Positions 5,534 through 61,292 of a stretch of 64,000 bases of DNA are shown here, in pieces. Below the pieces are notes generated by a model, which was not told where the DNA came from, made no database searches, and worked only from the letters and a program-made list of their open reading frames with translations. The stretch spans positions 794,919-858,918 of the forward strand of contig WJKK01000001.1 in assembly GCA_014729135.1 (NCBI GenBank), written 5' to 3'. This DNA comes from a candidate division WWE3 bacterium (GTDB taxonomy: Bacteria; Patescibacteriota; WWE3; UBA101185; UBA10185). Within the stretch, counting starts at the first letter, position 1. Every line of letters starts with the position of its first letter. Made by a program: the position numbers and the translations under genes.

Positions 5534-5725
5534 ACTGTACTGATTATACAGTACTTCTCCTTCTTTCTTTGGGAGTTTTTGTTCGAAATTTAAAGGTTAG
5601 GATCCGGATTCACTAGATTTAGCAGTGAGACAAACGTGGATCCTGATTTTCATCAGGATGACGTCTTCATCAAACCGGAGCCTAATGGGATAACGGCTCC
5701 TCCAAGAGAGCTAAACGTGAAAGGA

Positions 5726-7006: not shown

Positions 7007-8209
7007 CTACACACTAAACCTAAATTCAACAACATCTCCTTCTCTCATAGCATAATCCTTACCTTCGGATCGAATCTTGCCTTGGTTACGGGCTTCCTTC
7101 CAGCCTTCTAGTTTAACTAGAATATTGTATGAAATTACTTGAGCTGCTATAAATCCTCGTTGAAAGTCGGAGTGGATTTTGCCTGCTGCTTCGGGGGCGG
7201 TAGAGCCTTCTTTGATGGTCCATGCATGTACTTCTTTTGGGCCATAGGTGAAGAAGGTTTGTAGTCCAAGGAGTTTGTAGCTTTCGCGAATGATTTTGTT
7301 GAGGCCGGATTCTTGAATGCCTACTTGCTCCATGTAATCTTTTTGCTCCTGTGGAGTTAGTGCAGCTAGATCGGCCTCTAATTTAGCGCAAACAGGTATT
7401 CCCTTGATTTGATGGTCAGAATGAGGGGACAGTGCATCGAAATCCTCCCTCGTTGGATTCTGACTTTCGTCAGAATGACGGTGTGGGGAGTGTGTCATCC
7501 CGGACTCGATCCGGGATCCCCAATCACCATAAACATCTTCAGAAACATTAAACACATACATTACAGGCTTTAACGTCAGCAAATTCAAATCCTTAACCAA
7601 TTCTCGCTCCTTCTCCGACAAATCCAAAGTCAAAGCCAACTTTCCCGCATTCAAATGCCCCTGCAGCCTCTTATAAACCGCAAGACGAACAATTGACTCC
7701 TTTTGACCGGACTTGGCAGCTCTCTCCTCCGTTGTAATACGCTTTTCCAAAACCTCCAAATCCGCCAAAATCAGCTCAGTATTAATAACTTCCTTGTCCT
7801 CCTGAGGAGAAACCGAACCCGCCCGAGCAATATTTGCGTCCCTAAACAAGCGCAAAACGTGAATAATTGCATCTACCTCGCGAATATGGCTCAAAAATTT
7901 ATTACCCAATCCTTCACCTTTTGCTGCTCCTTTAACCAATCCGGCAATGTCTACAAACTTAACTACTGCCGGAATCACCTTATCGGGATCCTTATCATGC
8001 TCTTTTCTAACCAAATCCGTCAGACCCTGCACACGAGAATCCGGAACCTCCACAATACCTACATTGGGCTCTATAGTGGCAAAGGGATAGTTGGCAGCCA
8101 GCGCAGTTTGCTTTTTTAGAAGTGCATTAAAAAGGGTGGATTTGCCTACATTGGGAAGGCCTACTATTCCTATGGAGAGGTTTGTGCTTTTGCTTGACAT
8201 AAGAAACAC
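7007..8209 (-). CDS. ychF: ribosome-binding ATPase YchF (Obg-family GTPase) carrying an in-frame repeat-derived insertion
   Basis: P-loop IGIVGLPNVGKSTLFNAL, G-domain motifs and a C-terminal TGS-like region. About 35 aa (SGMTHSPHRHSDESQNPTREDFDALSPHSDHQIKG) are encoded by the dispersed palindromic element at 7456-7520. Confidence 0.85.
   Translation of the reverse strand: MFLMSSKSTNLSIGIVGLPNVGKSTLFNALLKKQTALAANYPFATIEPNVGIVEVPDSRVQGLTDLVRKEHDKDPDKVIPAVVKFVDIAGLVKGAAKGEGLGNKFLSHIREVDAIIHVLRLFRDANIARAGSVSPQEDKEVINTELILADLEVLEKRITTEERAAKSGQKESIVRLAVYKRLQGHLNAGKLALTLDLSEKERELVKDLNLLTLKPVMYVFNVSEDVYGDWGSRIESGMTHSPHRHSDESQNPTREDFDALSPHSDHQIKGIPVCAKLEADLAALTPQEQKDYMEQVGIQESGLNKIIRESYKLLGLQTFFTYGPKEVHAWTIKEGSTAPEAAGKIHSDFQRGFIAAQVISYNILVKLEGWKEARNQGKIRSEGKDYAMREGDVVEFRFSV
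7456..7520. repeat. dispersed palindromic element, family 2 (TCTGACTTTCGTCAGAATGAC ... CCCGGACTCGATCCGGG), inside ychF
   Basis: Related copies at 5638-5662, 13961-14017, 22671-22730 and 27181-27250. Confidence 0.7.
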
Positions 8210-13436: not shown

Positions 13437-15224
13437 CTACACCCCGGGAAGGCCGCCATCAAAAACCTCCAGTAAAGAACCATCCAAACTCACCTCACTA
13501 CTCTGCATACTTGGGACAACAACATTCAAATCGGTTAACTCCCCCGTCTCACGACCCCTCTTTTTAGGAGAGGCTTTCACAACACACTCCAGGGACAACT
13601 CCATATCAAAAACTTCGGAAAAAACCGTCTCCACAATCCTGCGATTTTTTGTATATTCCAGGCGATCTTTGTGAAAGGCAAACTCCACCTCTAAGACCAC
13701 AGCATCCCCTTTGACTTCCACTGGCTCCGCTGCCTTTAGTAAAGCTCTTACCGAGTGATTATATTTGCGAGAGGATCTTAAAACGTCGTTCCATTTTTTG
13801 GCTATTTCGGAGGCGGTTATGTCAATTGGGGACTTTGTTTCAGCTTTTTTCGGGGAGGGGCCTTCACTCCCATCCGGCATCCTACTGCCATCTGCCATCC
13901 CACTTCCGTTTTCCAGCTCACTTACACCCGTCATCCTACTGGCCTCCGCCATTCCGCCTCCGTCTGTCATCCCGGACTTGCTCCGAGATTCGGGACCCTG
14001 ATTTTCATCAGGATGACAAGGTTTAGAGGCATCGGAAGGGTTTTCCTCCACAGGGGTGGGTTTACTGGAAGATCTCTCCTCCGTAGATGTGGAGATATTA
14101 GTCATACCTTTTCCTAGAAAAGGGACAGGCTTCTTAGAGGACTGTCCTCTTAAAGGACTGTCCCCTCCTCCACAAATCTCGGCAACGGCAAGCTCCAAAG
14201 GCAACGTCGCAATATTAGACTCCGCAATCTCATTGCGCGCCTGCAAAAACTTCCGCGTATAAAACACCAAATCCTCCACCGAAAAGCCGGCAGCCTGCTC
14301 CTCCATTAACGCTGCTACCTCCTCCGTAACGTCCGACAAAACACCCTTGGCCCCCGCCTGCACAAACAAAAGCGACTTCAAATACTCCAAAAGCTGATAA
14401 GACCAAACCTCCATGTCCACACCCGACGCAAACTTCTCCTCCAAAAACTCCAAAGCCGAAGCCGCCTCCCCCGCAACCAAAAACGCAACAAAATCATGAA
14501 ACTCAACATAAGACGAAAAACCAAACAAACTCTCAGGATCCAGACTCCCCTGAATCACCTGCTGCAACATCGTCTCCGCATCTCGATAACCACCAAAAGA
14601 CGCCTGCGCAATCTTCCGCAAAGTCGCTTCCGCCACCTCCTCGCCAACCCCCTCCTCCGAAGCAATCAAACCCAACTTGGCAACCAGCTGCTCCATGGAA
14701 GCGCGCCTAAAATTAAAAACCTGACAGCGCGACTTAATAGTATCCAAAACTTTGTGCGGCTCAGTTGTGCACAAAACAAACAGGGCATGCTCCGGCGGCT
14801 CCTCCAAAGTCTTAAGCAAGGCGTTAAAAGCCTCCTTGGTCAACATGTGAACCTCGTCAATTATATAAACTTTTTTCGTTCCTTGCGAGGGAGCCAGGCC
14901 AATTCGATCACGAAGATTGCGAATGTCATCAATTCCGCGATTACTGGCAGCATCAATTTCTATTAGGTCCAGAAAATTACCTTTTTTAATGGTCTTACAA
15001 TTTGGGCAGGTATCGCAAGGATCACCATTTGGCTGAATGTTTGTGCAGTTTGCAGCCTTAGCCAGTAAACGCGCGGTTGTAGTCTTACCGGTTCCACGAG
15101 GGCCAATGAAAAGGTAGGCGTGCGAAAGGTTCCCATTTTTTACCTGAGTAGCCAGTGCATCTGCAATGGGGTTTGGCTTAACAAGTTCGCTAAATTTTTG
15201 CGGTCGGTATTTTAGATAAAACAT
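13437..15224 (-). CDS. dnaX: DNA polymerase III subunit gamma/tau, with a repeat-laden C-terminal linker
   Basis: AAA+ Walker A FIGPRGTGKTTTARLLAKAANC and zinc module CDTCPNC. The C-terminal region (coding coordinates about 13850-14170) contains low-complexity peptide repeats encoded by three dispersed DNA repeat families. Confidence 0.9.
   Translation of the reverse strand: MFYLKYRPQKFSELVKPNPIADALATQVKNGNLSHAYLFIGPRGTGKTTTARLLAKAANCTNIQPNGDPCDTCPNCKTIKKGNFLDLIEIDAASNRGIDDIRNLRDRIGLAPSQGTKKVYIIDEVHMLTKEAFNALLKTLEEPPEHALFVLCTTEPHKVLDTIKSRCQVFNFRRASMEQLVAKLGLIASEEGVGEEVAEATLRKIAQASFGGYRDAETMLQQVIQGSLDPESLFGFSSYVEFHDFVAFLVAGEAASALEFLEEKFASGVDMEVWSYQLLEYLKSLLFVQAGAKGVLSDVTEEVAALMEEQAAGFSVEDLVFYTRKFLQARNEIAESNIATLPLELAVAEICGGGDSPLRGQSSKKPVPFLGKGMTNISTSTEERSSSKPTPVEENPSDASKPCHPDENQGPESRSKSGMTDGGGMAEASRMTGVSELENGSGMADGSRMPDGSEGPSPKKAETKSPIDITASEIAKKWNDVLRSSRKYNHSVRALLKAAEPVEVKGDAVVLEVEFAFHKDRLEYTKNRRIVETVFSEVFDMELSLECVVKASPKKRGRETGELTDLNVVVPSMQSSEVSLDGSLLEVFDGGLPGV
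14122..14166. repeat. REP palindrome cluster (GGGACAGGC..GGACTGTCC..GGACTGTCCCC) inside the dnaX coding sequence
   Basis: Same GGAC(A/T)GTCC units, 6-7 nt apart, as the RAYT-flanking REPs; translated in frame as GGGDSPLRGQSSKKPVPFLGKG. Confidence 0.8.
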
Positions 15225-26613: not shown

Positions 26614-27051
26614 AAACAAGATGGGGGTCGCCCAAAGACGCTTGGGCGATCCCTGCTACCACTCCCCTTTTTAACTACTCCACATAAAACGTTTTCAAAA
26701 AGCACACTCTTTTCCCTTTTTTAAAACCATTCCATAGATTTGCACGATATCCTATAAAGTAATAAAATTGTCCCTGTCGCCAAAATTTCATTGCGAAAGG
26801 AGAAACTCGTGAGCGGAAAGACAAAAATCGTGGTGAGGTGCACTTGCTCGAAAAACCCCATATACAAGGGAAAATCGATACGAAGGGCTCAAGAAGTCTA
26901 TCAAGAGCACGCAAAGCAAGGACACCAACCTGGATTTGGTTCCTCAAAGTAGAGTATCTCGCGGGTGAGACTGCCAAAGACGTAATCGGCAAGCTCATTC
27001 GCGAGACCATCCCCCTTCCACAAACAACTTCAAACTCAAATTCCATTTTTT

Positions 27052-27129
27052 ATAAAGCGCAGAAATATCCCTTTTGAACGAATTTTGGCGTACTCGCCAA
27101 CCTGAGCAAAAAAGGGATATTTCAAGCTG
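27052..27129. repeat. 78-bp structured palindromic repeat, copy A
   Basis: ATAAAGCGCAGAAATATCCCTTTTG..CGAATTTTGGCGTACTCGCCAACCTGAGCAAAAAAGGGATATTTCAAGCTG is nearly identical (2 mismatches) to 49781-49858. It has 16-bp outer inverted arms and an inner TTGGCG/CGCCAA hairpin. Confidence 0.8.
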
Positions 27130-27291
27130 CTAAATCAAAAGGGGTGAAGCGAGAAAGGGTATGCCTGTTTTATCAGAGATCCTGACTTTCGTCAGGATGA
27201 CGGTATGAAGCTCAGGATGACGCACTACTAAAAAGGATGACGGAATACAAAATTTAGAATAGGTAAACAAGCTCTGGAGGTATGACCGGAT

Positions 27292-29448: not shown

Positions 29449-29679
29449 ACTCTTTGAAGGATACTGGGTTGGGGGGTTTTATGCAAATGTAAGCTCAACC
29501 CTGCTTTCCGGCTCCACGACGTCATGTGCTCGGCTGTCTTTTTGCTCTTTTTCTGAAACGCTTGGCCAATGCAAGCATACCCGCCCTCTGTCTCCACGAC
29601 TCCATTTCATTTCGTAATGTCGCCAGAGGGAGGGCGTGCTTTTCGGGAACTGGAGTATGATACTCAAGAAAATGGGGGT

Positions 29680-31773
29680 TTATTCACGGTTCTCGGAAAA
29701 CCAGTAATCCAAGAGCGTGCGAGCAATAGGAGCAGCATCATCAGAACCCCCTCCCCCACCTTCCAAGAAAACCGTCAAAACAATTTCAGCATCCTCCAAG
29801 GGCCCCCAAACTGTAAACCAAGCATGCGTCCTTTCATTGCCTTGCGGATCAATATACTCAGAAGTTCCTGTCTTGCCGGCCAGCACCACTCCGTACTTTT
29901 CCGGAAAATCAAACACAGGGTAACCCGTTCCTCCCGGAGTAACCGCCCGTCGAAGCCCTTCACGAACCAAATCCAGAGTCTGCGGAGAAATTAAATCGCG
30001 CGCTAAAACCTCCTTTGAAGTTGCCTCCCCCGCCACCTCGGAAACCACACGAGGGCGCAGCAGCTCGCGCCCATTAGCAAAGTAAGAAGTCACCATATTC
30101 ACCTGCAAGGGAGTCGCCAAAAAGTCGCCCTGCCCAATGGAAGTGATGTAAGTGTCGCCCAAATACCAGTCTTTGTAGTCGCCATCAGGGACAAAGCCTG
30201 CCACTTCTCCCGGAATATCGATACCTGTTTTAGCGCCAAAGCCAAATTTTTTTGACCAATTGGAGATGCGGTCAATGCCTAGGCCTTCAATGTTGCCGTA
30301 GCCTCCTCCTATGGTGTAAAAGTAGGTGTCGTTGCTGACCTGGAGGGCTCTTAAGAGGTCCACTTGGCCATGCCCGTCGAGTTTCCAGTTTCTAAATGTG
30401 TAGCCTGCAACGGAAAGGTAACCGGGGTCGTTGATAGTGCTATAGGGTGTTATGGCGGATTCTTCGAGCGCTGCTGAGGCCATAACCATTTTATAGGTCG
30501 ATCCGGGAGGGTAGTTGGCGCCAATTGCTCTGTTGAAAAAGGGGTGGTTGTAGGTTTCTTCTAAGGTGGCAAGTTCGGCGGAGGTTACTCCTGAGACCAT
30601 TTTTTGGGCGTCAAAGGAGGGGTAGCTGGCTAGAGCAAGGACACCTCCGGTTTGTGGGTCTTGGGCTACAACGACTCCGGCGTCTGCTGTGGCTCCGGGG
30701 ATTTTTTCGTTTTCCGGAGTGGCGGGGCTGTTAGGGTCTGCGGAGGTGTTGGAGTTTTTGGAGGCGTCAACAGCTTTTTTCAGTTCTTCATAGGCTAGTT
30801 TTTGAAGGCCTATGTCGGCAAAAAGTTTAATGTTTTCGCCGGGAACGGGATCTTTGGTGTCAAACTCCCGGAGGCTTTCGTTGGAGGAGTTTACTTGAAT
30901 TAATCTTTGTCCGGAAATTCCTGTTAGTGGCTTGTTGTAGGAGGCTTCTAAGCCGGTTTTTCCTTCTATTAGTGGGGTTAGGCTTTCGTTGGAGAGGCCG
31001 GTGTAACCAAGGAGGTGTGCAAAGGCTTCGGGATAGTGGTAGTCGCGGGTGGGATAGGTTAGGACATCGATGGCGGGGACTTTTTGTGTTCCAAGGGAGT
31101 CCAGTAGTGAGGCGGATTCAAGCGAGAGGAGTTGATCTTTGTTAAGGTTCTGCGCAATTACAAGGGATTGAATTCCCGGTGTATCGAGTTGGGTGAGTTG
31201 AGGGACAGTCCTTTGAGGGGACAGTCCTTTCCAGGGACTGTCCTCTCCGAGGACAGTCCTCTTAAAGGACTGTCCCCTCCTCAGGTGATCGAGCGTGTCT
31301 GAGACTAGGCGTTTACAAAGAGTACGATCTTTACCCAAACTGCATCGGGACACATTAAGTACAAGGTTGAAAGTTGGGCGGTTTTGCGCAATTACTTCTC
31401 CTTTTTGATCAAAAATGACTCCTCGTGGGGCGGGAATTTCATAAGTACGTGTCCGATTTCTTTGAGCCAGTGCCTGATATTCCTTCGACTCCAAAACCTG
31501 TAATTTAAATGCTCGCGCAAAAAAAACTAAGAAACTTGCCAGCAATAAAAAAGTAAAAAACAAGAGGTGCCCATGAAAAGTTTTGCGACCGGAGTTAAAA
31601 TAGTCCTTACCTATTAGGGGATTAACCTCGTTTAAATGCGCACCCTCCCCTCCCCTTTTTAAACGGCTCCTTTTTGAACCGGACTTTCCCGGGTATTTAA
31701 AACGCAATAACCTCTTTAAAAAAGACTCCCCACCCTTTAACTCCTCAAAAAAGTTCGGATTTATTGCGTTCAT
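29680..31773 (-). CDS. mrdA: class B penicillin-binding protein 2 (elongasome transpeptidase), with an in-frame REP insertion
   Basis: SxxK (GSTYKM), SxN (VSNDTYF) and KTGT (AGKTGTSE) motifs; sits in the mreBCD-pbp2 arrangement. RRGQSFKRTVLGEDSPWKGLSPQRTVPQL is encoded by five copies of the GGAC(A/T)GTCC palindrome at 31202-31277. Confidence 0.85.
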   Translation of the reverse strand: MNAINPNFFEELKGGESFLKRLLRFKYPGKSGSKRSRLKRGGEGAHLNEVNPLIGKDYFNSGRKTFHGHLLFFTFLLLASFLVFFARAFKLQVLESKEYQALAQRNRTRTYEIPAPRGVIFDQKGEVIAQNRPTFNLVLNVSRCSLGKDRTLCKRLVSDTLDHLRRGQSFKRTVLGEDSPWKGLSPQRTVPQLTQLDTPGIQSLVIAQNLNKDQLLSLESASLLDSLGTQKVPAIDVLTYPTRDYHYPEAFAHLLGYTGLSNESLTPLIEGKTGLEASYNKPLTGISGQRLIQVNSSNESLREFDTKDPVPGENIKLFADIGLQKLAYEELKKAVDASKNSNTSADPNSPATPENEKIPGATADAGVVVAQDPQTGGVLALASYPSFDAQKMVSGVTSAELATLEETYNHPFFNRAIGANYPPGSTYKMVMASAALEESAITPYSTINDPGYLSVAGYTFRNWKLDGHGQVDLLRALQVSNDTYFYTIGGGYGNIEGLGIDRISNWSKKFGFGAKTGIDIPGEVAGFVPDGDYKDWYLGDTYITSIGQGDFLATPLQVNMVTSYFANGRELLRPRVVSEVAGEATSKEVLARDLISPQTLDLVREGLRRAVTPGGTGYPVFDFPEKYGVVLAGKTGTSEYIDPQGNERTHAWFTVWGPLEDAEIVLTVFLEGGGGGSDDAAPIARTLLDYWFSENRE
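31202..31277. repeat. REP palindrome array (5 copies of GGAC(A/T)GTCC) inside the mrdA coding sequence
   Basis: gggacagtcc tttgag gggacagtcc tttcca gggactgtcc tctccga ggacagtcc tcttaaa ggactgtcccc, read directly. Confidence 0.85.
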
Positions 31774-31778
31774 AAAAG

Positions 31779-32261
31779 CTAATTATAGCGACGCTTCCCC
31801 AAAAGATAAAAGAAAGCAAAACTTAATAGATTTAAAAGTAAAAAGGGCAAACTAAAAACTTCCGGTCCCTCTAACCGAAAACTCCACCAAATAAAGGAAA
31901 AAATAGTTAGAGTCAGCAAATAAAGAATGAGATTGCCGAAAAACTTGTTGACATAGTAGGTCACAAGCAGACATGCAAGCATGATTACAGAACTCACTCC
32001 CCAAAAACCGGGAGTTAGCAAGTCAAATAGCAGCCCTCCAATGAAGGCGCTAAAGCAGGCCTTATTGGTTTTTTCTAAGGCCAAAAGCGCCAAAGGCAAC
32101 GTAAAGATTAAAATAGGAGTTGCCTCCTGCAAAAAAACAGGCAAAAAGCTTCCTTGAATTAGAGCTGTCACTAAAGTCAACAAAGCGAGTCCAAAGTAGG
32201 AGCGCCAAGTGCTTTTAGATCTTTGTGAAAGGTCCTTGGAATGGATGTGTTTAGTCATCAT
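31779..32261 (-). CDS. mreD: rod shape-determining protein MreD (polytopic membrane protein)
   Basis: 160-aa multi-TM protein positioned between mreC and pbp2. Confidence 0.5.
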   Translation of the reverse strand: MMTKHIHSKDLSQRSKSTWRSYFGLALLTLVTALIQGSFLPVFLQEATPILIFTLPLALLALEKTNKACFSAFIGGLLFDLLTPGFWGVSSVIMLACLLVTYYVNKFFGNLILYLLTLTIFSFIWWSFRLEGPEVFSLPFLLLNLLSFAFFYLLGKRRYN

Positions 32262-32335: not shown

Positions 32336-33322
32336 CTAAAGACCCTCCTCCCGCAAACTTAATAAAACAAAAACCTTACTTAAGCGTTCAAGCTCCAATA
32401 AAGGAATCACCTGGGCACTCTTTAAAGGCTGCGTGGGCTCCGCCTCAATTTTACCAACTCGGCCAACAATGTAGTTGGGCTTGAAAAAACCTTCCCTTCC
32501 GGAGGTCAAGAGCAGGTCGCCTTCCGTCAGTGGTTCCTTTTGCAGCACCCTTGTTAGCTTTAGAGAAGTTCCAAAGTCGCCAGTGACGATTCCTTCGGTC
32601 TGGTAAGGGCTTGTTGATTGAAGGGAGGTTGCTGGAGTTTCTTGGGAGGCGTCCGATTCAGGGGATTCCGATGAGTTCGGAGAAACGTCTGCTTCCTCAT
32701 TACCTGCTTTACCTGGAACCAAGGCCTCAAACGAAAACCGCTTAACAGGAACCTTCAACTCCGGCGAATACAAAAGCTCAACCAAACTGCTAAACTTTCC
32801 TGCCTCCTTTACGCGAGCCACCAAAAAATTCTTGTAAACAAGCAAATCGCCCTGCTTAATCTGCTTGTTAGAGCCTGCATTTATGTACGCAGTAGAATTC
32901 GTTGTATCTGTAGGGTTTCCTGTCAACGAAACAAGCAGAAGTTTTTCTTGAGAGTTGTGCAAAGTAGGCGTCGGTGGCTGTGGCACTTCTAACCAGGAAG
33001 TGCTATCCTCTATTGTTGTACCTACCAAATCGGGATTTTTCAGAAAAAACTGATCCTGCAAAACTCCATATTCTTCCACAAAATCCTGATAAGAAGCCTT
33101 TTCGGACTGAAGATTCAAAACCCGCGCCTTCAAATCCTGATTTTCCCGGTAAATAGAGCGTATGTTGACCAAAAAGGTTGCGTAATCCTGCGTTTGAAGA
33201 GCAGCTTCCCTAAAAGGAATAGATAAAAAGTTTAAACTTGCCCCGCCCGCCTCCTCGATTGGATGGGAAACTCCTAAAAAGGAGAGTATAAGTATGAAAA
33301 TTGCTGCCAAAAGATATTTCAT
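32336..33322 (-). CDS. mreC: rod shape-determining protein MreC
   Basis: N-terminal TM helix, a coiled-coil segment and a beta-rich C-terminal domain; immediately downstream of mreB. Confidence 0.6.
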   Translation of the reverse strand: MKYLLAAIFILILSFLGVSHPIEEAGGASLNFLSIPFREAALQTQDYATFLVNIRSIYRENQDLKARVLNLQSEKASYQDFVEEYGVLQDQFFLKNPDLVGTTIEDSTSWLEVPQPPTPTLHNSQEKLLLVSLTGNPTDTTNSTAYINAGSNKQIKQGDLLVYKNFLVARVKEAGKFSSLVELLYSPELKVPVKRFSFEALVPGKAGNEEADVSPNSSESPESDASQETPATSLQSTSPYQTEGIVTGDFGTSLKLTRVLQKEPLTEGDLLLTSGREGFFKPNYIVGRVGKIEAEPTQPLKSAQVIPLLELERLSKVFVLLSLREEGL

Positions 33323-33403: not shown

Positions 33404-34477
33404 CTAATCCACACGCACCAAATCCAAAAGCATCTCATCCTCCAGCAACTTCCCACAGCCGCGAACAACACAAGAAATAGGATCCTCCGCCAAATGAACA
33501 GGTGCTTTAAGCTCTTTGGACAATAAAAGATCCAGATTCTTAAGCTGAGAAGTGCCTCCGGCCAAAACAGCACCGGAAGACAAGATGTCAGGCATCAACT
33601 CTGCAGGAGTGGCCTCTATCACATCCTTGACTGCATTGATAATAAGGGTCAGGGAACCTTTCATGGCCTCCTCCAGCTCCTCAGGGGATGCCTTAATTGA
33701 ACGCGGTAATCCGGTTTTTAAATCCCGACCCTGAAAAACCAAAGCGTCCTGCACACCTTCACGCGAGGCCTCCAAACGACTCCCTCCGGAAACCCCCTCC
33801 ACTAAAGCGCTGCCAAAAGCACACTTCAAAGCCTCCGCTGTCCCCTCCCCCAACAAAAGATTGTATTTTTTGCGGGCATAATTAACGATGTCCATGTCCA
33901 ACTGATCCCCCGCCACACGAAGCGAATTACTTATAACCATGCCTCCCAAAGAGATGACTGCAATTTCCGTGGTGCCGCCGCCAATGTCCACAATCAAATT
34001 TCCGGCTGCTTTCTTAACGGGAAGACCTGCTCCAATTGCTGCAGCCATGGGTTCTTCCACTAAAATGGCTTTGCGCGCACCGGCGGTTAGCGCGGAGTCA
34101 ATTACGGCCTTCCTTTCCACTGAGGTCAATCCTGAGGGAACACCTATGACGATTTTGGGCTTGGGATATTTGGGGAATTTTGTGGGAATGGCGTTAACGG
34201 ATTTTATGAAGTGCTCTAGCATTTTTTCGGTGGCGTAAAAGTCTGAGATGACGCCGTTGCGAAGGGGTCTGATGGCTTCTAATGTTTGAGGGGTTTTGCC
34301 TAGCATCTTTTTGGCCTCAGCTCCAACGGCCAAAATCTGTTTCGTTTTTTTGTGGATGGTTACTACGCTGGGCTCGTTTATGAGGATGCCTTTACCTTTG
34401 ACATAAACCAGTATGTTGGCGGTTCCAAGGTCTATCCCAATATCGTAGGAAATCTTGCTCAAAATTTTATCAATCAT
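33404..34477 (-). CDS. mreB: rod shape-determining protein MreB (actin homolog)
   Basis: DIGIDLGTANILVYVKGKGILINEPSVV and the other actin-fold motifs. Confidence 0.9.
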   Translation of the reverse strand: MIDKILSKISYDIGIDLGTANILVYVKGKGILINEPSVVTIHKKTKQILAVGAEAKKMLGKTPQTLEAIRPLRNGVISDFYATEKMLEHFIKSVNAIPTKFPKYPKPKIVIGVPSGLTSVERKAVIDSALTAGARKAILVEEPMAAAIGAGLPVKKAAGNLIVDIGGGTTEIAVISLGGMVISNSLRVAGDQLDMDIVNYARKKYNLLLGEGTAEALKCAFGSALVEGVSGGSRLEASREGVQDALVFQGRDLKTGLPRSIKASPEELEEAMKGSLTLIINAVKDVIEATPAELMPDILSSGAVLAGGTSQLKNLDLLLSKELKAPVHLAEDPISCVVRGCGKLLEDEMLLDLVRVD

Positions 34478-34494
34478 ATGGTGAGTTTAGCAGA

Positions 34495-35276
34495 GGGGAC
34501 AGTCCTCTTAAAGGACTGTCCCCTTTTGAAATTCTAGTTTAGCTAGAATATTGGTTTGAAAAAGGATTATAGGATGAAAAAAAGCGGAGATTAATCTTCG
34601 AGATTTACAAATCTTTTATACCCGGGACCGGACTTTTTGAAGTGCTGAAGCACTTCCGAAGTATCCAAAAACTTAAAACTTTTCCCGGGCGAAACAGCAG
34701 AATCCTGATAAAAAGAAAAGCTGGAATAGGGATAAGAAAAGATCTCTTTGTCTAATTCCAAGGGATTGCGGTGAATGTAGCGACTAACATGCAAAAGATC
34801 GGCGGAATCCTTAATAAGACGAGCCTTATACCGACCCTCCAACAAACGACCTCTAAGAGCGTATCTGCCTTTACAATAAAAAACATAACTGAGCTGTAAG
34901 CTTTTCATGAAGCGCGACATGTCATATTCTTCCTTTTGTTTTAAAAGAAGGTGAAAATGCGTGGGCATCAGACAAAAAGCATAAAGAGATATTTTTTCGT
35001 GGAAAGTTTTTCTATTACTTATAGGATTATTTCTTTCTAAAAGCTTATCCCTCAAAAAACTAAGGAAAACTTTGTAATCTTGTTCATCGCGAAACAACAA
35101 ACCTCGATCATTGGCTCTATTATAGGCGTGATAGATACCCTCTTCTTGATAATCTTTTAGAGCATTCTTGGCGGGCATATTTAAATCCTACTCAATATTT
35201 AGTCCAATTCAAGTGCCTATATTCTAGTTAAATTGGAATCTCTAAAAAAGGGACAGTCCTCTTAAAGGACTGTCCC
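34495..35276 (-). mobile_element. RAYT (REP-associated tyrosine transposase) gene flanked on both sides by REP hairpins
   Basis: REP GGGACAGTCCTCTTAAAGGACTGTCCC at 34495-34524 and 35250-35276 brackets the tnpA-like ORF. Confidence 0.65.
34591..35178 (-). CDS. REP-associated tyrosine transposase (IS200/IS605-like Y1 HUH transposase)
   Basis: HUH motif PTHFHLLLK; catalytic Tyr region SRYIHRNPLE (the YxxxNP pattern of RAYTs); N-terminal YHAYNRANDRGLLF. Confidence 0.7.
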   Translation of the reverse strand: MPAKNALKDYQEEGIYHAYNRANDRGLLFRDEQDYKVFLSFLRDKLLERNNPISNRKTFHEKISLYAFCLMPTHFHLLLKQKEEYDMSRFMKSLQLSYVFYCKGRYALRGRLLEGRYKARLIKDSADLLHVSRYIHRNPLELDKEIFSYPYSSFSFYQDSAVSPGKSFKFLDTSEVLQHFKKSGPGYKRFVNLED

Positions 35277-35302
35277 TTCCAAAAATATGGTAAAATGGCG
35301 GT

Positions 35303-49653: not shown

Positions 49654-49780
49654 TTGAAACTCCTTCCTTTCGTCTCTCTCAACAGGAGAGACATACATAA
49701 TATAAACGACACTAACGGTCAACGTACCAAGCACAATAACAAAAAAACTTTTATTCCGCAACTTTTTTCCCGCTCTTTTC

Positions 49781-49858
49781 ATAAAGCGCAGAAATATCCC
49801 TTTTGCGCGAATTTTGGCGTACTCGCCAACCTGAGCAAAAAAGGGATATTTCAAGCTG
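49781..49858. repeat. 78-bp structured palindromic repeat, copy B
   Basis: Near-identical to 27052-27129, read directly. Confidence 0.8.
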
Positions 49859-50143
49859 TGAAACCAGGAAGAAATGAGGGGAAAAAGAAAAAGGCCCGCC
49901 AAAGCGAGCCTCCTTCATGTCTAAAAAAAATCAAAATAAAACCGCCCGACGTGCCGTTCCACCGGAGTAGAATCCCTCGATTCTAAAGTGGGTTTCCTAT
50001 CTTGAGTCTTTACTCCCAAGAACCCGGAATCCCTATAAGCGAGTGTTGAGACTTACTTCAGTTCCGGCTTTTTCGAACACGTCAGAGTAGAGCTTTTTTC
50101 ATCTCTTATGCTAATTATATCAAAATTTCAGGCGCGTCAAATC

Positions 50144-50764: not shown

Positions 50765-50972
50765 GTTGGGATTATATCATTCCCTTCGTTAGTCTCTGCT
50801 AAATAAGGAGGCCTGCCCATCTTTTTGTCTCCACGACTCCATTTCATTCCGTAATGTCGCCAAAAAGAGAGCCGACCTCCTTAAACTCCCATCCCCTATC
50901 TTATCGTGACACTCCTCCAAAAATGCAAACTAAAAATAACAACCTGCCCCCAAAATATGATAGAATTCCACA

Positions 50973-59879: not shown

Positions 59880-61067
59880 TCAAAGGATTTGTTGTTTTTG
59901 GAGGTGTTTTTAAGTGCTTAATTTAATGCATACCTTTAGGAAAGATTCGGAAAACTTTTTGGGATAATGTTTTACTCAGGTTACTCGTGAGAATTTTTAA
60001 AGGAGTTTTGGAGTACGCTTTTAGGATAACTACAAAAGCCAGAAGGAGCGTTAGCAGGCGAAACCACGGAATGACAAATGGAGCGATCAAAATAAGCACA
60101 AGAGATGAAAAAGGGTGTAAATTTTTGATAAATCGCTAATTTGCAAATTATAACAACCTAAATAGCAAAGATCAAGGAAAAGCACGTGTTTCCTCTGGCT
60201 TTAAAGCCGTCCAAACAGAGGGTGCAAACTTTGTTATACACCCCTGTGGAGGGGAATAAAAAGGTTTATCAGACACAACACAAAGAGTGCCAGGTAAGAA
60301 GGCAATTTTTACTCATTTTACTCAAAACCATTCCATAGAGGTTGAAAAGTAGCGGGAATAGGGGTACATGTGTTGAGTCATTAGGAGAACTCAAAACAGC
60401 TCTCCTCCGATAAGTTTTTGAGGAAAATCGACAACATCTAGATCAATATCATCTAGCAACTTTTTAAGAAAAAAGATGAGAGCTGATTTAGGTTTGAGAA
60501 AATTACTTTGATTTTCCTAAAACACACCGCGCACAAAACAACGCAATTGCACACAAAGCTCTCTTTGGAAATTTTTGAGCAATTTCGTAACTTTTAGACC
60601 AGTCCAGTAGAGGCTTACCCTTTTCTAAAATCAACGGCATATTACTTAAAAAGACAAATTCCAGAAGAGCCTCCACTTTATATAGGATGAAATTGAACAA
60701 GTAAGGAGCTTTTTTCGATATAGAAATAAAAATTTCTCCGCAAGGGTGCCTAATTAAACAAATGCGCATTATTTTTTATTTCAAAAAATCAAATTTTTGA
60801 AACGGCGCCAAAGTAAAGAAAAATTTAGTTTTCAGAAAAAAGAAATTTTTAGGACTCCCCTACTCTGCAAAAGAAATCATCTTAAATTGAGTAGACAGTT
60901 GACTCAAAAAACCTCTCGACTGACTCTAGAAATTCTAAACGAAAAAAATCAGCTTAGTATTGGAGGCTGAGGTTTAGAAACTCCCAAAGTATCAATTTAA
61001 AAGTATTGTATGTCAAAATGGAGTGAAAAAACCGCTTAAAACGAATTCTAGAGCCTCGCTTGAAAAA

Positions 61068-61127
61068 GGGACAGGCTTCTAAGGGGACAGTCCTTTGAAA
61101 GGACTGTCCTCTCCGAGGACAGTCCCC
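61068..61127. repeat. REP palindrome array (4 copies), intergenic
   Basis: gggacaggc ttctaag gggacagtcc tttgaaa ggactgtcc tctccga ggacagtcccc. Confidence 0.85.
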
Positions 61128-61292
61128 TATAGTAAGCGAGCCCCTCTAGTAACTGTGGAAAAGTTGTTGACTTAAGCACTTGCATGGGATACTATTTATA
61201 TAACCTTGTTATTTGGCTCTATAAAGGTTTGTGACAAGGCTTTGAAAAACAATGACGACCAACAAAATGCCGGTTTAAAGAAAGAAAGAAAC

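Follow-up and report, generated by a model that had tools for sequence, protein, structure and literature searches.

A cluster of short palindromic repeats resides, in frame and without a stop codon, within mrdA, the gene for the class B penicillin-binding protein PBP2, in a 64-kb stretch of the genome of a candidate division WWE3 bacterium (the whole of this stretch is referred to below as the window). The same repeat brackets a gene for a Y1/HUH tyrosine transposase that lies a short distance from the array, an arrangement reminiscent of repetitive extragenic palindromes (REPs) and their REP-associated tyrosine transposases (RAYTs). Taken together, the evidence makes it probable that a cluster of REP hairpins, paired with a RAYT-like gene, has come to lie within the reading frame of mrdA as a tolerated, near-neutral by-product. 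The insertion step itself, presumably catalysed by the RAYT-like enzyme, is put forward with less confidence than the rest of this reading.

A REP array within the coding sequence of mrdA

On the plus strand, positions 31201-31283 read AGGGACAGTCC-TTTGAGG-GGACAGTCC-TTTCCAG-GGACTGTCC-TCTCCGA-GGACAGTCC-TCTTAAA-GGACTGTCC-CCTCCTC. Five exact copies of the 9-mer GGAC[A/T]GTCC, here called arms, start at 31203, 31219, 31235, 31251 and 31267 (span 31203-31275). Fourteen copies of this 9-mer were observed in the window, relative to 0.35 expected from shuffled sequences, and none of 100 shuffles reached that number. A five-unit array at this location, in frame within mrdA, had been reported together with its peptide in a preliminary description made from the sequence alone, and both the sequence and the open reading frame (ORF) bear this out. 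Two details of that description require correction: the units, said to be spaced by 15-17 bp, are spaced by exactly 16 bp, and their orientation, said to alternate, does not do so strictly, the central bases being A, A, T, A and T.

The mrdA ORF reads ...DHLRRGQSFKRTVLGEDSPWKGLSPQRTVPQLTQL... across the array without a stop, and the REP-encoded residues of PBP2 number 28 (84 nt; peptide RRGQSFKRTVLGEDSPWKGLSPQRTVPQ). Five arms of 16 bp amount to 80 bp, a length not divisible by three. The reading frame is preserved either because the REP-derived stretch measures 84 nt once its CCTCCTC flank is counted, a flank also present in a second copy of the repeat within dnaX, or because the array replaced native codons. 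Since the 16-nt register shifts the frame by one nucleotide per arm, the peptide reads GQS / RTV / DSP / GLS / RTV along its length. The proposal that such units are codon-compatible is accurate for the 9-mer core GGAC(A/T)GTCC, which has no stop in any of its six frames, but does not extend to the spacers and loops, which do contain stops. In both the mrdA and the dnaX array, only one of the three frames per strand is open throughout, and each host gene uses that open frame. This pattern fits survivorship under purifying selection on needed genes, and is not evidence of codon design.

All four spacers between the arms of the mrdA array are distinct (TTTGAGG, TTTCCAG, TCTCCGA and TCTTAAA), which renders an assembly error in its copy number unlikely. 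As mRNA, arms 2-5 form one long helix with a predicted folding energy of -58.6 kcal/mol over 106 nt (z = -5.4). A scan of the window against Rfam at gathering thresholds returned four tRNAs only, and the array matched no Rfam family.

The host gene and its product

The assignment of the host gene as mrdA, already made in the preliminary description, rests firmly on the PBP_dimer and Transpeptidase domains recognized by Pfam and on structural comparison. An AlphaFold2 model built from the ortholog alignment reached a mean predicted local distance difference test (pLDDT) score of 87.3, and its best Foldseek matches were PBP2 structures (6tii, 6g9f and 5lp5; E ~1e-48), these best matches being crystal structures of PBP2 from Yersinia, E. 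coli, Campylobacter and Helicobacter. The protein is 100% identical to the NCBI entry [quoted passage not shown], and its S425/K428 (SxxK), S480-N481-D482 and K634-T635-G636 (KTG) motifs are invariant in 118 aligned PBP2 sequences. The ORF is intact over 697 aa and the gene looks so as a whole; the modified protein is presumably functional, and PBP2 is assumed, from model bacteria, to be essential in this WWE3 organism. The gene lies directly downstream of mreB-mreC-mreD, with all four genes on the minus strand, and the same order is found in the closest relative considered below.

In the model, a helix at residues 151-166 is followed by a stretch without secondary structure (167-190), a short helix (191-195) and a strand (203-210), and the pLDDT within the insert is only 52-59 (residues 171-190). 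Alignment to P. aeruginosa PBP2 (7kis) places the insert in the helical head of the N-terminal module, some 170 residues before the transpeptidase domain, in agreement with the earlier placement of the insert in the N-terminal part of the protein, upstream of that domain. The insert is therefore predicted to form a low-confidence, disordered surface loop of the head subdomain, at a distance from the transpeptidase active site, and the mrdA and dnaX repeats both occupy loop or linker sites where added residues do least harm.

Two further segments of this PBP2 are peculiar to its lineage. One low-complexity insertion, SKNSNTSADPNSPATPENEKIP (window 30686-30751; residues ~341-362), separates the pedestal from the transpeptidase domain; another, basic in composition, occupies residues ~36-55 at the N-terminus. 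Both have low pLDDT, and neither matches any repeat family in the window.

Lineage specificity of the insert

The nearest non-identical PBP2 found among 5.8 billion proteins shares 64% identity with that of the window. The REP segment, suspected from the outset of being lineage-specific, is absent from all 117 PBP2 orthologs aligned (43-68% identity), including the 17 closest. In the closest relative (L124), a 16.6-kb contig shows the gene order def-mreB-mreC-mreD-mrdA-topA found in the window, and contains no GGACWGTCC, no transposase between def and mreB (which are separated by a 45-nt spacer) and no insert peptide. A relative that carries the peptide while lacking the repeat, the observation named in the preliminary description as speaking for an ancestral peptide, was thus not encountered, L124 having neither. 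A metagenome scan for the WWE3-type hairpin gave four matches, all on contigs of 61-66% GC unrelated to WWE3, and yielded no alleles or relatives.

Relative to its four nearest orthologs, the window PBP2 has a clean surplus of 17 residues, GEDSPWKGLSPQRTVPQ, and relative to two others (P0008 and P0009) it has a net gain of 22 aa. The figure of about 28 added residues given earlier is thus correct for what the repeat encodes but not for the net gain in length. The first ~11 REP-encoded residues, RRGQSFKRTVL, align over native residues (LPEDCKPDRESI in ortholog P0002), and the native stretch beneath them already differs in length among orthologs by up to 5 residues. Either some native codons were replaced by the array, or the array entered an ancestral loop that was shorter.

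At the homologous insertion site of L124 (~5105), the ortholog reads CTTCCTGAGGACTGCAAA, and the closest ortholog's CCTGAGGACTGC resembles one REP arm. The site also shares CCTGAGGA with the junction of the window array, at a 3-nt offset and in another frame. This arm-like sequence could reflect a target preference or chance.

The repeat family within the window

A census of repeats in the 64-kb window identified five arrays of the GGAC(A/T)GTCC family: those of mrdA and dnaX, two that flank the Y1 transposase gene, and one that is intergenic (Table 1). The canonical unit is a single hairpin of ~29 nt, GGGGACAGTCCT-CTTAA-AGGACTGTCCCC, and the stretches first taken as units are the near-palindromic arms of this hairpin. 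The mrdA array amounts to ~2.5 hairpins, and deletion of 32 nt restores the canonical hairpin; accordingly, it may be read either as a hairpin nested in a hairpin or as a 32-nt tandem duplication.

The dnaX array sits in frame in the variable, non-alignable linker that follows domain III of the DNA polymerase III gamma/tau subunit. The copies in dnaX and mrdA have 34 nt of coding strand in common with one mismatch, GAGGAGGGGACAGTCCTTTAAGAGGAC[A/T]GTCCTC, and these nucleotides are translated in different frames, as GGGDSPLRGQS in dnaX and RRGQSFKRTV in mrdA. Because the two genes read the same 34 nt in different frames, it is the DNA, and not the peptide, that is the repeated unit. Homology at the DNA level is likewise evident from the intergenic array at 61067, given its identity to the first four mrdA arms.

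Other identities of the repeat were considered and rejected. A CRISPR array does not fit, as spacers within clusters resemble each other and the 16-nt register is rigid. A transcription-factor operator does not fit copies that are dispersed, lie inside ORFs and flank Y1 transposase genes, and the mrdA copy cannot serve as a terminator since it is internal to an ORF.

A Y1/HUH transposase gene bracketed by the hairpin

The transposase gene next to mreB occurs as a single copy in the window and is bracketed on both sides by canonical hairpins, with three further arrays elsewhere in the window. Its product scores 35 bits against Pfam Y1_Tnp (cut-off 23), with the HUH motif present as HFH in PTHFHLLL and the catalytic tyrosine in SRYIHRNP; H74, H76 and Y134 are invariant in 47 homologs. 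A search of the PDB with the single sequence gave no match, and the family profile matched ISDra2 TnpA (2xm3; E = 2.8e-4) with the HUH motif and the tyrosine aligned. The label of RAYT-type REP given to the mrdA repeat in the preliminary description is supported by the presence of the same repeat on both sides of a Y1/HUH gene 3.3 kb away.

Homologs with 51% identity occupy the same slot between def and mreB (34478-35302 in the window) in WWE3-like contigs L125, L127 and L128, the homolog of L127 being in inverted orientation. Conservation of this slot at 51% identity suggests long vertical inheritance of the gene rather than mobility of the whole unit. The L125 homolog is flanked by closely related hairpins, GAGGCCTGTCCTTTCAAAGGACTGTCCCC and GGGGCCTGTCCTCTCAGAGGACTGTCCTC, and homologs of the Woesebacteria type (L129 and L132) are flanked by their own, unrelated hairpins. 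The picture, as judged from gene order and repeat position, appears to be that of a REPtron: one vertically inherited transposase gene bracketed by a repeat that is scattered elsewhere.

Table 1. Repeats, host genes and neighbouring genes in the 64-kb window, and Pfam-confirmed hosts of the hairpin in other genomes (locus and position given for the latter)
Feature	Position	Strand	Description
REP array in mrdA	31201-31283		Five GGAC(A/T)GTCC arms plus shared CCTCCTC flank; PBP2 residues 165-192 (minus-strand reading)
REP array in dnaX	14121-14171		Three arms, the first a GGGACAGGC variant (also in the 61067 array); encodes GGGDSPLRGQSSKKPVPF
Canonical REP hairpin	34494-34524		Two arms; between RAYT-like stop codon and mreB start codon
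Canonical REP hairpin	35249-35277		Two arms; between RAYT-like start and divergent def gene
Intergenic four-arm array	61067-61128		87% identical over 62 nt to first four mrdA arms
mrdA (class B PBP2)	29680-31773	-	Intact 697-aa ORF; Pfam PBP_dimer 113-303, Transpeptidase 366-688
RAYT-like Y1/HUH tyrosine transposase	34591-35178	-	195 aa; Pfam Y1_Tnp E = 1.8e-8; 3.3 kb from mrdA array
dnaX (DNA polymerase III gamma/tau)	13437-15224	-	595 aa; Pfam DNA_pol3_delta2, DNA_pol3_gamma3, DnaX_C; identical to NCBI WWE3 DnaX
mreD	31779-32261	-	
mreC	32336-33322	-	
mreB	33404-34477	-	
CGTC-type repeat in ychF	7456-7517		In frame in ychF ORF (7007-8209, minus strand); encodes GDWGSRIESGMTHSPHRHSDESQNPTRE
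CGTC-type repeat in dnaX linker	13962-14023		In frame; encodes CHPDENQGPESRSKSGMTD
CGTC-type repeats, intergenic	5639-5668 and 27178-27207		
Saccharibacteria ValRS	L029 3032		Hairpin in frame; 881-aa ORF
Omnitrophota RfbB	L055 2902		Hairpin in frame; two copies
Planctomycetia Era	L066 567		Hairpin in frame
Omnitrophota MiaB-like enzyme	L050 7549		Hairpin in frame

The hairpin in other phyla

One genome per GTDB species was scanned with a query of two arms 16 nt apart, and at least 119 loci (L001-L119) were found. Those listed come from Omnitrophota, Planctomycetota, Actinomycetota, Gammaproteobacteria, Myxococcota and Acidobacteriota/Aminicenantes, and also from Chloroflexota, Nitrospirota, Bacillota and three groups of the Candidate Phyla Radiation (CPR), for at least 10 phyla overall. 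Across these phyla the hairpin is near-identical, often with several copies per genome (e.g., in Oxalobacteraceae UBA6704, Myxococcaceae and Gammaproteobacteria MFD09964), and it is sometimes clustered with a ~46-nt period. Among the matches listed, the consensus is GGGGACTGTCCCC-GCA/GAA-GGGGACTGTCCCC, comprising a 12-13-bp stem, a triloop and a central T·T (or A·A) mismatch; the two arms agree at their centre in 123 of 144 cases, and GT[AG]G is nearby in 14 of the 123 oriented hairpins of other phyla. This hairpin also brackets homologs of the window transposase (29-39% identity) in Microgenomates (L089), Planctomycetota (L034) and Aminicenantes (L087).

The hairpin has entered coding sequences elsewhere as well. 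Among the listed loci of less than 55% GC, 11 of 43 hairpins fall within an ORF of 250 aa or more, and nine of these 11 intragenic copies read G(Q/L)S(P)xGTVP, which corresponds to two of the six possible frames, with Cys-containing frames avoided. Since Pfam-confirmed genes in other genomes host the hairpin in frame (Table 1), such residence is a recurrent property of the family, and not a peculiarity of mrdA.

Two cases deserve separate mention. The ValRS of L029 also carries the inserts SYCHSRESGNLVAKDPRVKPEDD and IGNLSKDPRVKPEDD, which resemble peptides derived from CGTC-type REPs (described below); as these CGTC-like inserts accompany the hairpin, the gene holds two repeat families. Homologous giant proteins of Omnitrophota (L096 449) and Planctomycetales (L115 7137) contain the hairpin at the same position, after YAPLRQxYYSLxLAxWFK, in opposite orientations (GQSPAGTVP vs GLSLKGTVP); this could stem from gene transfer, from an inverted palindrome or from separate, independent hits at one site.

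It is conceivable, though on balance doubtful, that the GGGGAC(A/T)GTCCCC hairpin and its Y1 transposase constitute an ancient REP lineage conserved at the DNA level, for which residence within genes, with a preference for G(Q/L)SPxGTVP, is a niche rather than a rare accident. If so, a core that is free of stops in six frames would let the element inhabit coding sequence, which would be an advantage in gene-dense, reduced genomes such as those of the CPR.

Other repeats in the window

A second palindromic family, of the CGTC-tagged REP type, is also present (CGTC-ATYCTGAC-GAAA-GTCAGRAT, with the partner hairpin ATCCCGGA-nnnn-TCCGGGAT). Copies lie in frame in ychF and in the dnaX linker, the ychF segment providing ~23 aa more than E. 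coli YchF has at that site, and the peptides encoded in the two genes resemble the Rickettsia CGTC-1 peptide CHSRESGNP. Within 64 kb, therefore, repeat-derived segments are present in three conserved genes (mrdA, dnaX and ychF).

The dnaX linker further contains an 18-nt tandem repeat (13865-13904) encoding a GMTDGGGMAEASRM...GSGMADGSRMPDGS expansion that orthologs do not have, such that the linker holds three kinds of repeat-derived sequence. Two dispersed elements were also noted: one of 91 nt (27047-27137 and 49776-49866; 93% identity) with an internal 29-nt inverted repeat, and one of 47 nt (29589-29635, between mrdA and topA, and 50826-50872; 89% identity).

Proposed origin and persistence of the mrdA array

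On the line of descent to this WWE3 genome, the hairpin cluster would have entered mrdA or would have grown there by steps of 16/32 nt. The site affected would be the loop that joins helices one and two of the PBP2 "head" subdomain and that is already variable in length among orthologs. The Y1 enzyme may move or copy hairpins by single-strand cleavage and ligation, a reaction that is established for IS200/IS605 TnpA and for E. coli TnpA-REP, and arrays may lengthen by 16/32-nt duplication as well. Copies disrupting an essential gene would be lost, leaving rare survivors that are in frame, free of stops and situated in loops, and the effect on PBP2 would be near-neutral. The mrdA array would persist because its length keeps the frame, because the gene reads the only stop-free frame, and because the 17-28 extra residues form a disordered surface loop. 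The peptide, on this account, is a tolerated by-product of selfish or neutral DNA, and not a selected module.

Several observations weigh against this reading, and those concerning the transposase also lend themselves to an alternative in which the hairpins are the ends of an insertion sequence (IS) of the IS200/IS605 type, or solo-end derivatives comparable to palindrome-associated or miniature inverted-repeat transposable elements (PATEs or MITEs), the mrdA array being a cluster of IS-end remnants. The family profile matches E. coli TnpA-REP (4er8) weakly (E = 0.22) and ISDra2 TnpA better, and the protein scores 39.8 bits against the NCBIfam equivalog REP_Tyr_transpos (NF047646), below the RAYT cut-off of 80. 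Moreover, the flanking hairpins appear to be in direct, not inverted, orientation, like the left and right ends of IS200 (the loop CTTAA is on the plus strand in both, and orientation is read from the loop alone, the stems being perfectly symmetric). The hairpin also has no GT[AG]G foot, the feet in the window being AGAG, AAAA, GGAA, TTGA or GGAG. An IS origin is nevertheless unlikely, as the two sides of the gene bear the same hairpin rather than distinct left and right ends, the def-mreB slot is kept in relatives that are only 51% identical, the locus has no tnpB, short hairpins are dispersed without a transposase gene, and the transposase, at 195 aa, is longer than IS200 TnpA (chains of 140-143 aa). 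A further point against near-neutrality is the very stable mRNA hairpin, which could have regulatory consequences that the label ignores. It would suit an array retained for its usefulness, through an mRNA hairpin that tunes mrdA or mreBCD-mrdA, or through a loop that modulates the interaction of the head with MreC/RodA; the ~30-bp mRNA hairpin might cause ribosome pausing, provide an RNase III site or protect upstream mRNA. The five arms are all exact, with no decay, and the insert lies in the head subdomain, which reportedly takes part in a regulatory conformational change, as is said to emerge from work on PBP2-MreC (PDB 5lp5). Such retention is very unlikely all the same. Exact arms are equally explained by recent insertion, dnaX reads the same DNA in another frame without conservation of the peptide, the model predicts a disordered loop, none of the orthologs has anything at the site, and unrelated genes are also hosts (dnaX here; ValRS, Era and RfbB elsewhere); a 2013 survey likewise took a pattern of this kind as evidence against function (PMC3733652).

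The genome is a metagenome assembly, and palindromic repeats are prone to error in assembly; an open, in-frame outcome would, moreover, arise by chance in ~1/9 of cases per gene (1/3 for length x 1/3 for an open frame), as might be supposed of a pseudogene with a luckily open frame. That the array is a misassembly, or mrdA such a pseudogene, is still extremely improbable, as mrdA and dnaX are both open and in frame (~1/81 by chance), ychF is open through a different repeat family, the array spacers all differ, the catalytic motifs and the 697-aa ORF are undamaged, and the sequence to either side of the insert is highly conserved. The notion that the peptide is ancestral, with the repeats elsewhere derived from it or converged upon it, has its only hint in the arm-like CCTGAGGACTGC at the homologous position of the closest ortholog; with the segment in none of 117 orthologs, the same DNA at non-coding sites and in another frame in dnaX, and a family spread over many phyla, its probability is negligible. 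Finally, some points on the history of the site count against the tolerated-insertion reading itself: the net gain of 17-22 aa is smaller than the 28 aa encoded by the REP, so that the change may not have been a simple, clean insertion; the databases searched gave no relative above 64% protein identity and no empty-site or variant allele; and the nearest ortholog, at 64% identity, is too diverged for an empty site to be compared nucleotide by nucleotide.

Relation to known systems

REPs within ORFs have been documented in many species by Di Nocera, De Gregorio and Rocco (2013; BMC Genomics 14:522; PMC3733652), who described both GTAG- and CGTC-tagged types. In their survey, stretches of 20-30 aa are encoded by REP dimers or groups, which occur disproportionately in genes of replication and repair (dnaE, uvrA); the list includes PBP 1C of R. 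conorii (RC0249), the GTAG class is tied to RAYT genes, and the authors argue for tolerated insertions in loops and linkers. In-frame residence of a RAYT-type REP, considered unusual in the preliminary description, had thus already been catalogued for RAYT-associated (GTAG) and CGTC repeats alike. The WWE3 palindromes are similar in that they lie wholly inside ORFs of known proteins longer than 120 aa and in frame (mrdA, 697 aa; dnaX, 595 aa), with a replication gene (dnaX) and a penicillin-binding protein gene among the hosts. They differ in that the mrdA hairpin has neither a GTAG nor a CGTC tag, the arms are near-palindromic and set on a rigid 16-nt register, and the host belongs to the CPR/Patescibacteria, outside the earlier sample. 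The CGTC type of that survey is fitted by the second family, in ychF and dnaX.

The classic in-frame palindromic elements, as represented in later papers citing Ogata et al. 2000 (PMC3733652 and PMC10969869), are the Rickettsia palindromic elements (RPEs). Here too, palindromic repeats lie in frame in conserved, presumably functional genes of a small genome and add a surface peptide. The RPE-1 type, however, is ~100-150 bp long, has a conserved peptide in one frame, is confined to Rickettsia and has no dedicated transposase, whereas the WWE3 unit is ~29 nt, differs in frame by gene (mrdA vs dnaX), has an adjacent Y1 transposase gene and resides in a CPR host. The resemblance of the mrdA array to RPEs is functional only.

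Parallels are also seen in the REP/REPIN-RAYT systems (Nunvar 2010; Bertels and Rainey 2011, PMC3116915; PMC6006769), in which a dispersed hairpin likewise flanks a Y1/HUH gene, hairpins form clusters, and the transposase gene is kept in one chromosomal slot across relatives. REPs have been characterized as species-specific and as possessing a GT[AG]G foot, with REP insertions reported even in tnpA-REP genes (Quentin 2018; PMC6006769). The WWE3 system departs from this pattern in its lack of the GT[AG]G guide tetranucleotide, its apparently direct flanking hairpins, a protein distant from characterized RAYTs, and a hairpin that is near-identical across many phyla rather than species-specific. 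With IS200/IS605 it shares the Y1 HUH/Tyr core, predicted recognition of hairpins and apparently direct end hairpins; unlike these elements, it consists, within the window, of a single gene in a conserved slot, with identical end hairpins, no tnpB, and dispersed solo hairpins and arrays.

Literature searches returned nothing relevant on REPs or RAYTs in Patescibacteria/CPR, and searches with motif strings returned eukaryotic primers and similar items. The CPR host, the tag-less hairpin and the conservation of the hairpin across phyla look to be undescribed in the literature searched, and the second, CGTC-type family in frame in ychF and dnaX also appears to be new. Intragenic REPs as a phenomenon are already known, and the mrdA case leaves the principle unchanged.

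Implications

Patescibacteria are thus among the hosts of REP-type mobile palindromes and of a RAYT-like transposase, and a genome of 0.86 Mb tolerates repeats in core genes for the cell wall (mrdA), replication (dnaX) and a translation-associated function (ychF), for which Rickettsia has been the main earlier example of palindromes tolerated in such genes. For annotation, this explains odd, low-complexity loops in CPR proteins, and cautions that such segments are derived from repeats and are not lineage-specific functional domains. The Y1 enzyme, together with a fixed 29-nt substrate bearing a central T·T mismatch, provides a tractable pair for studying the evolution of REP recognition.

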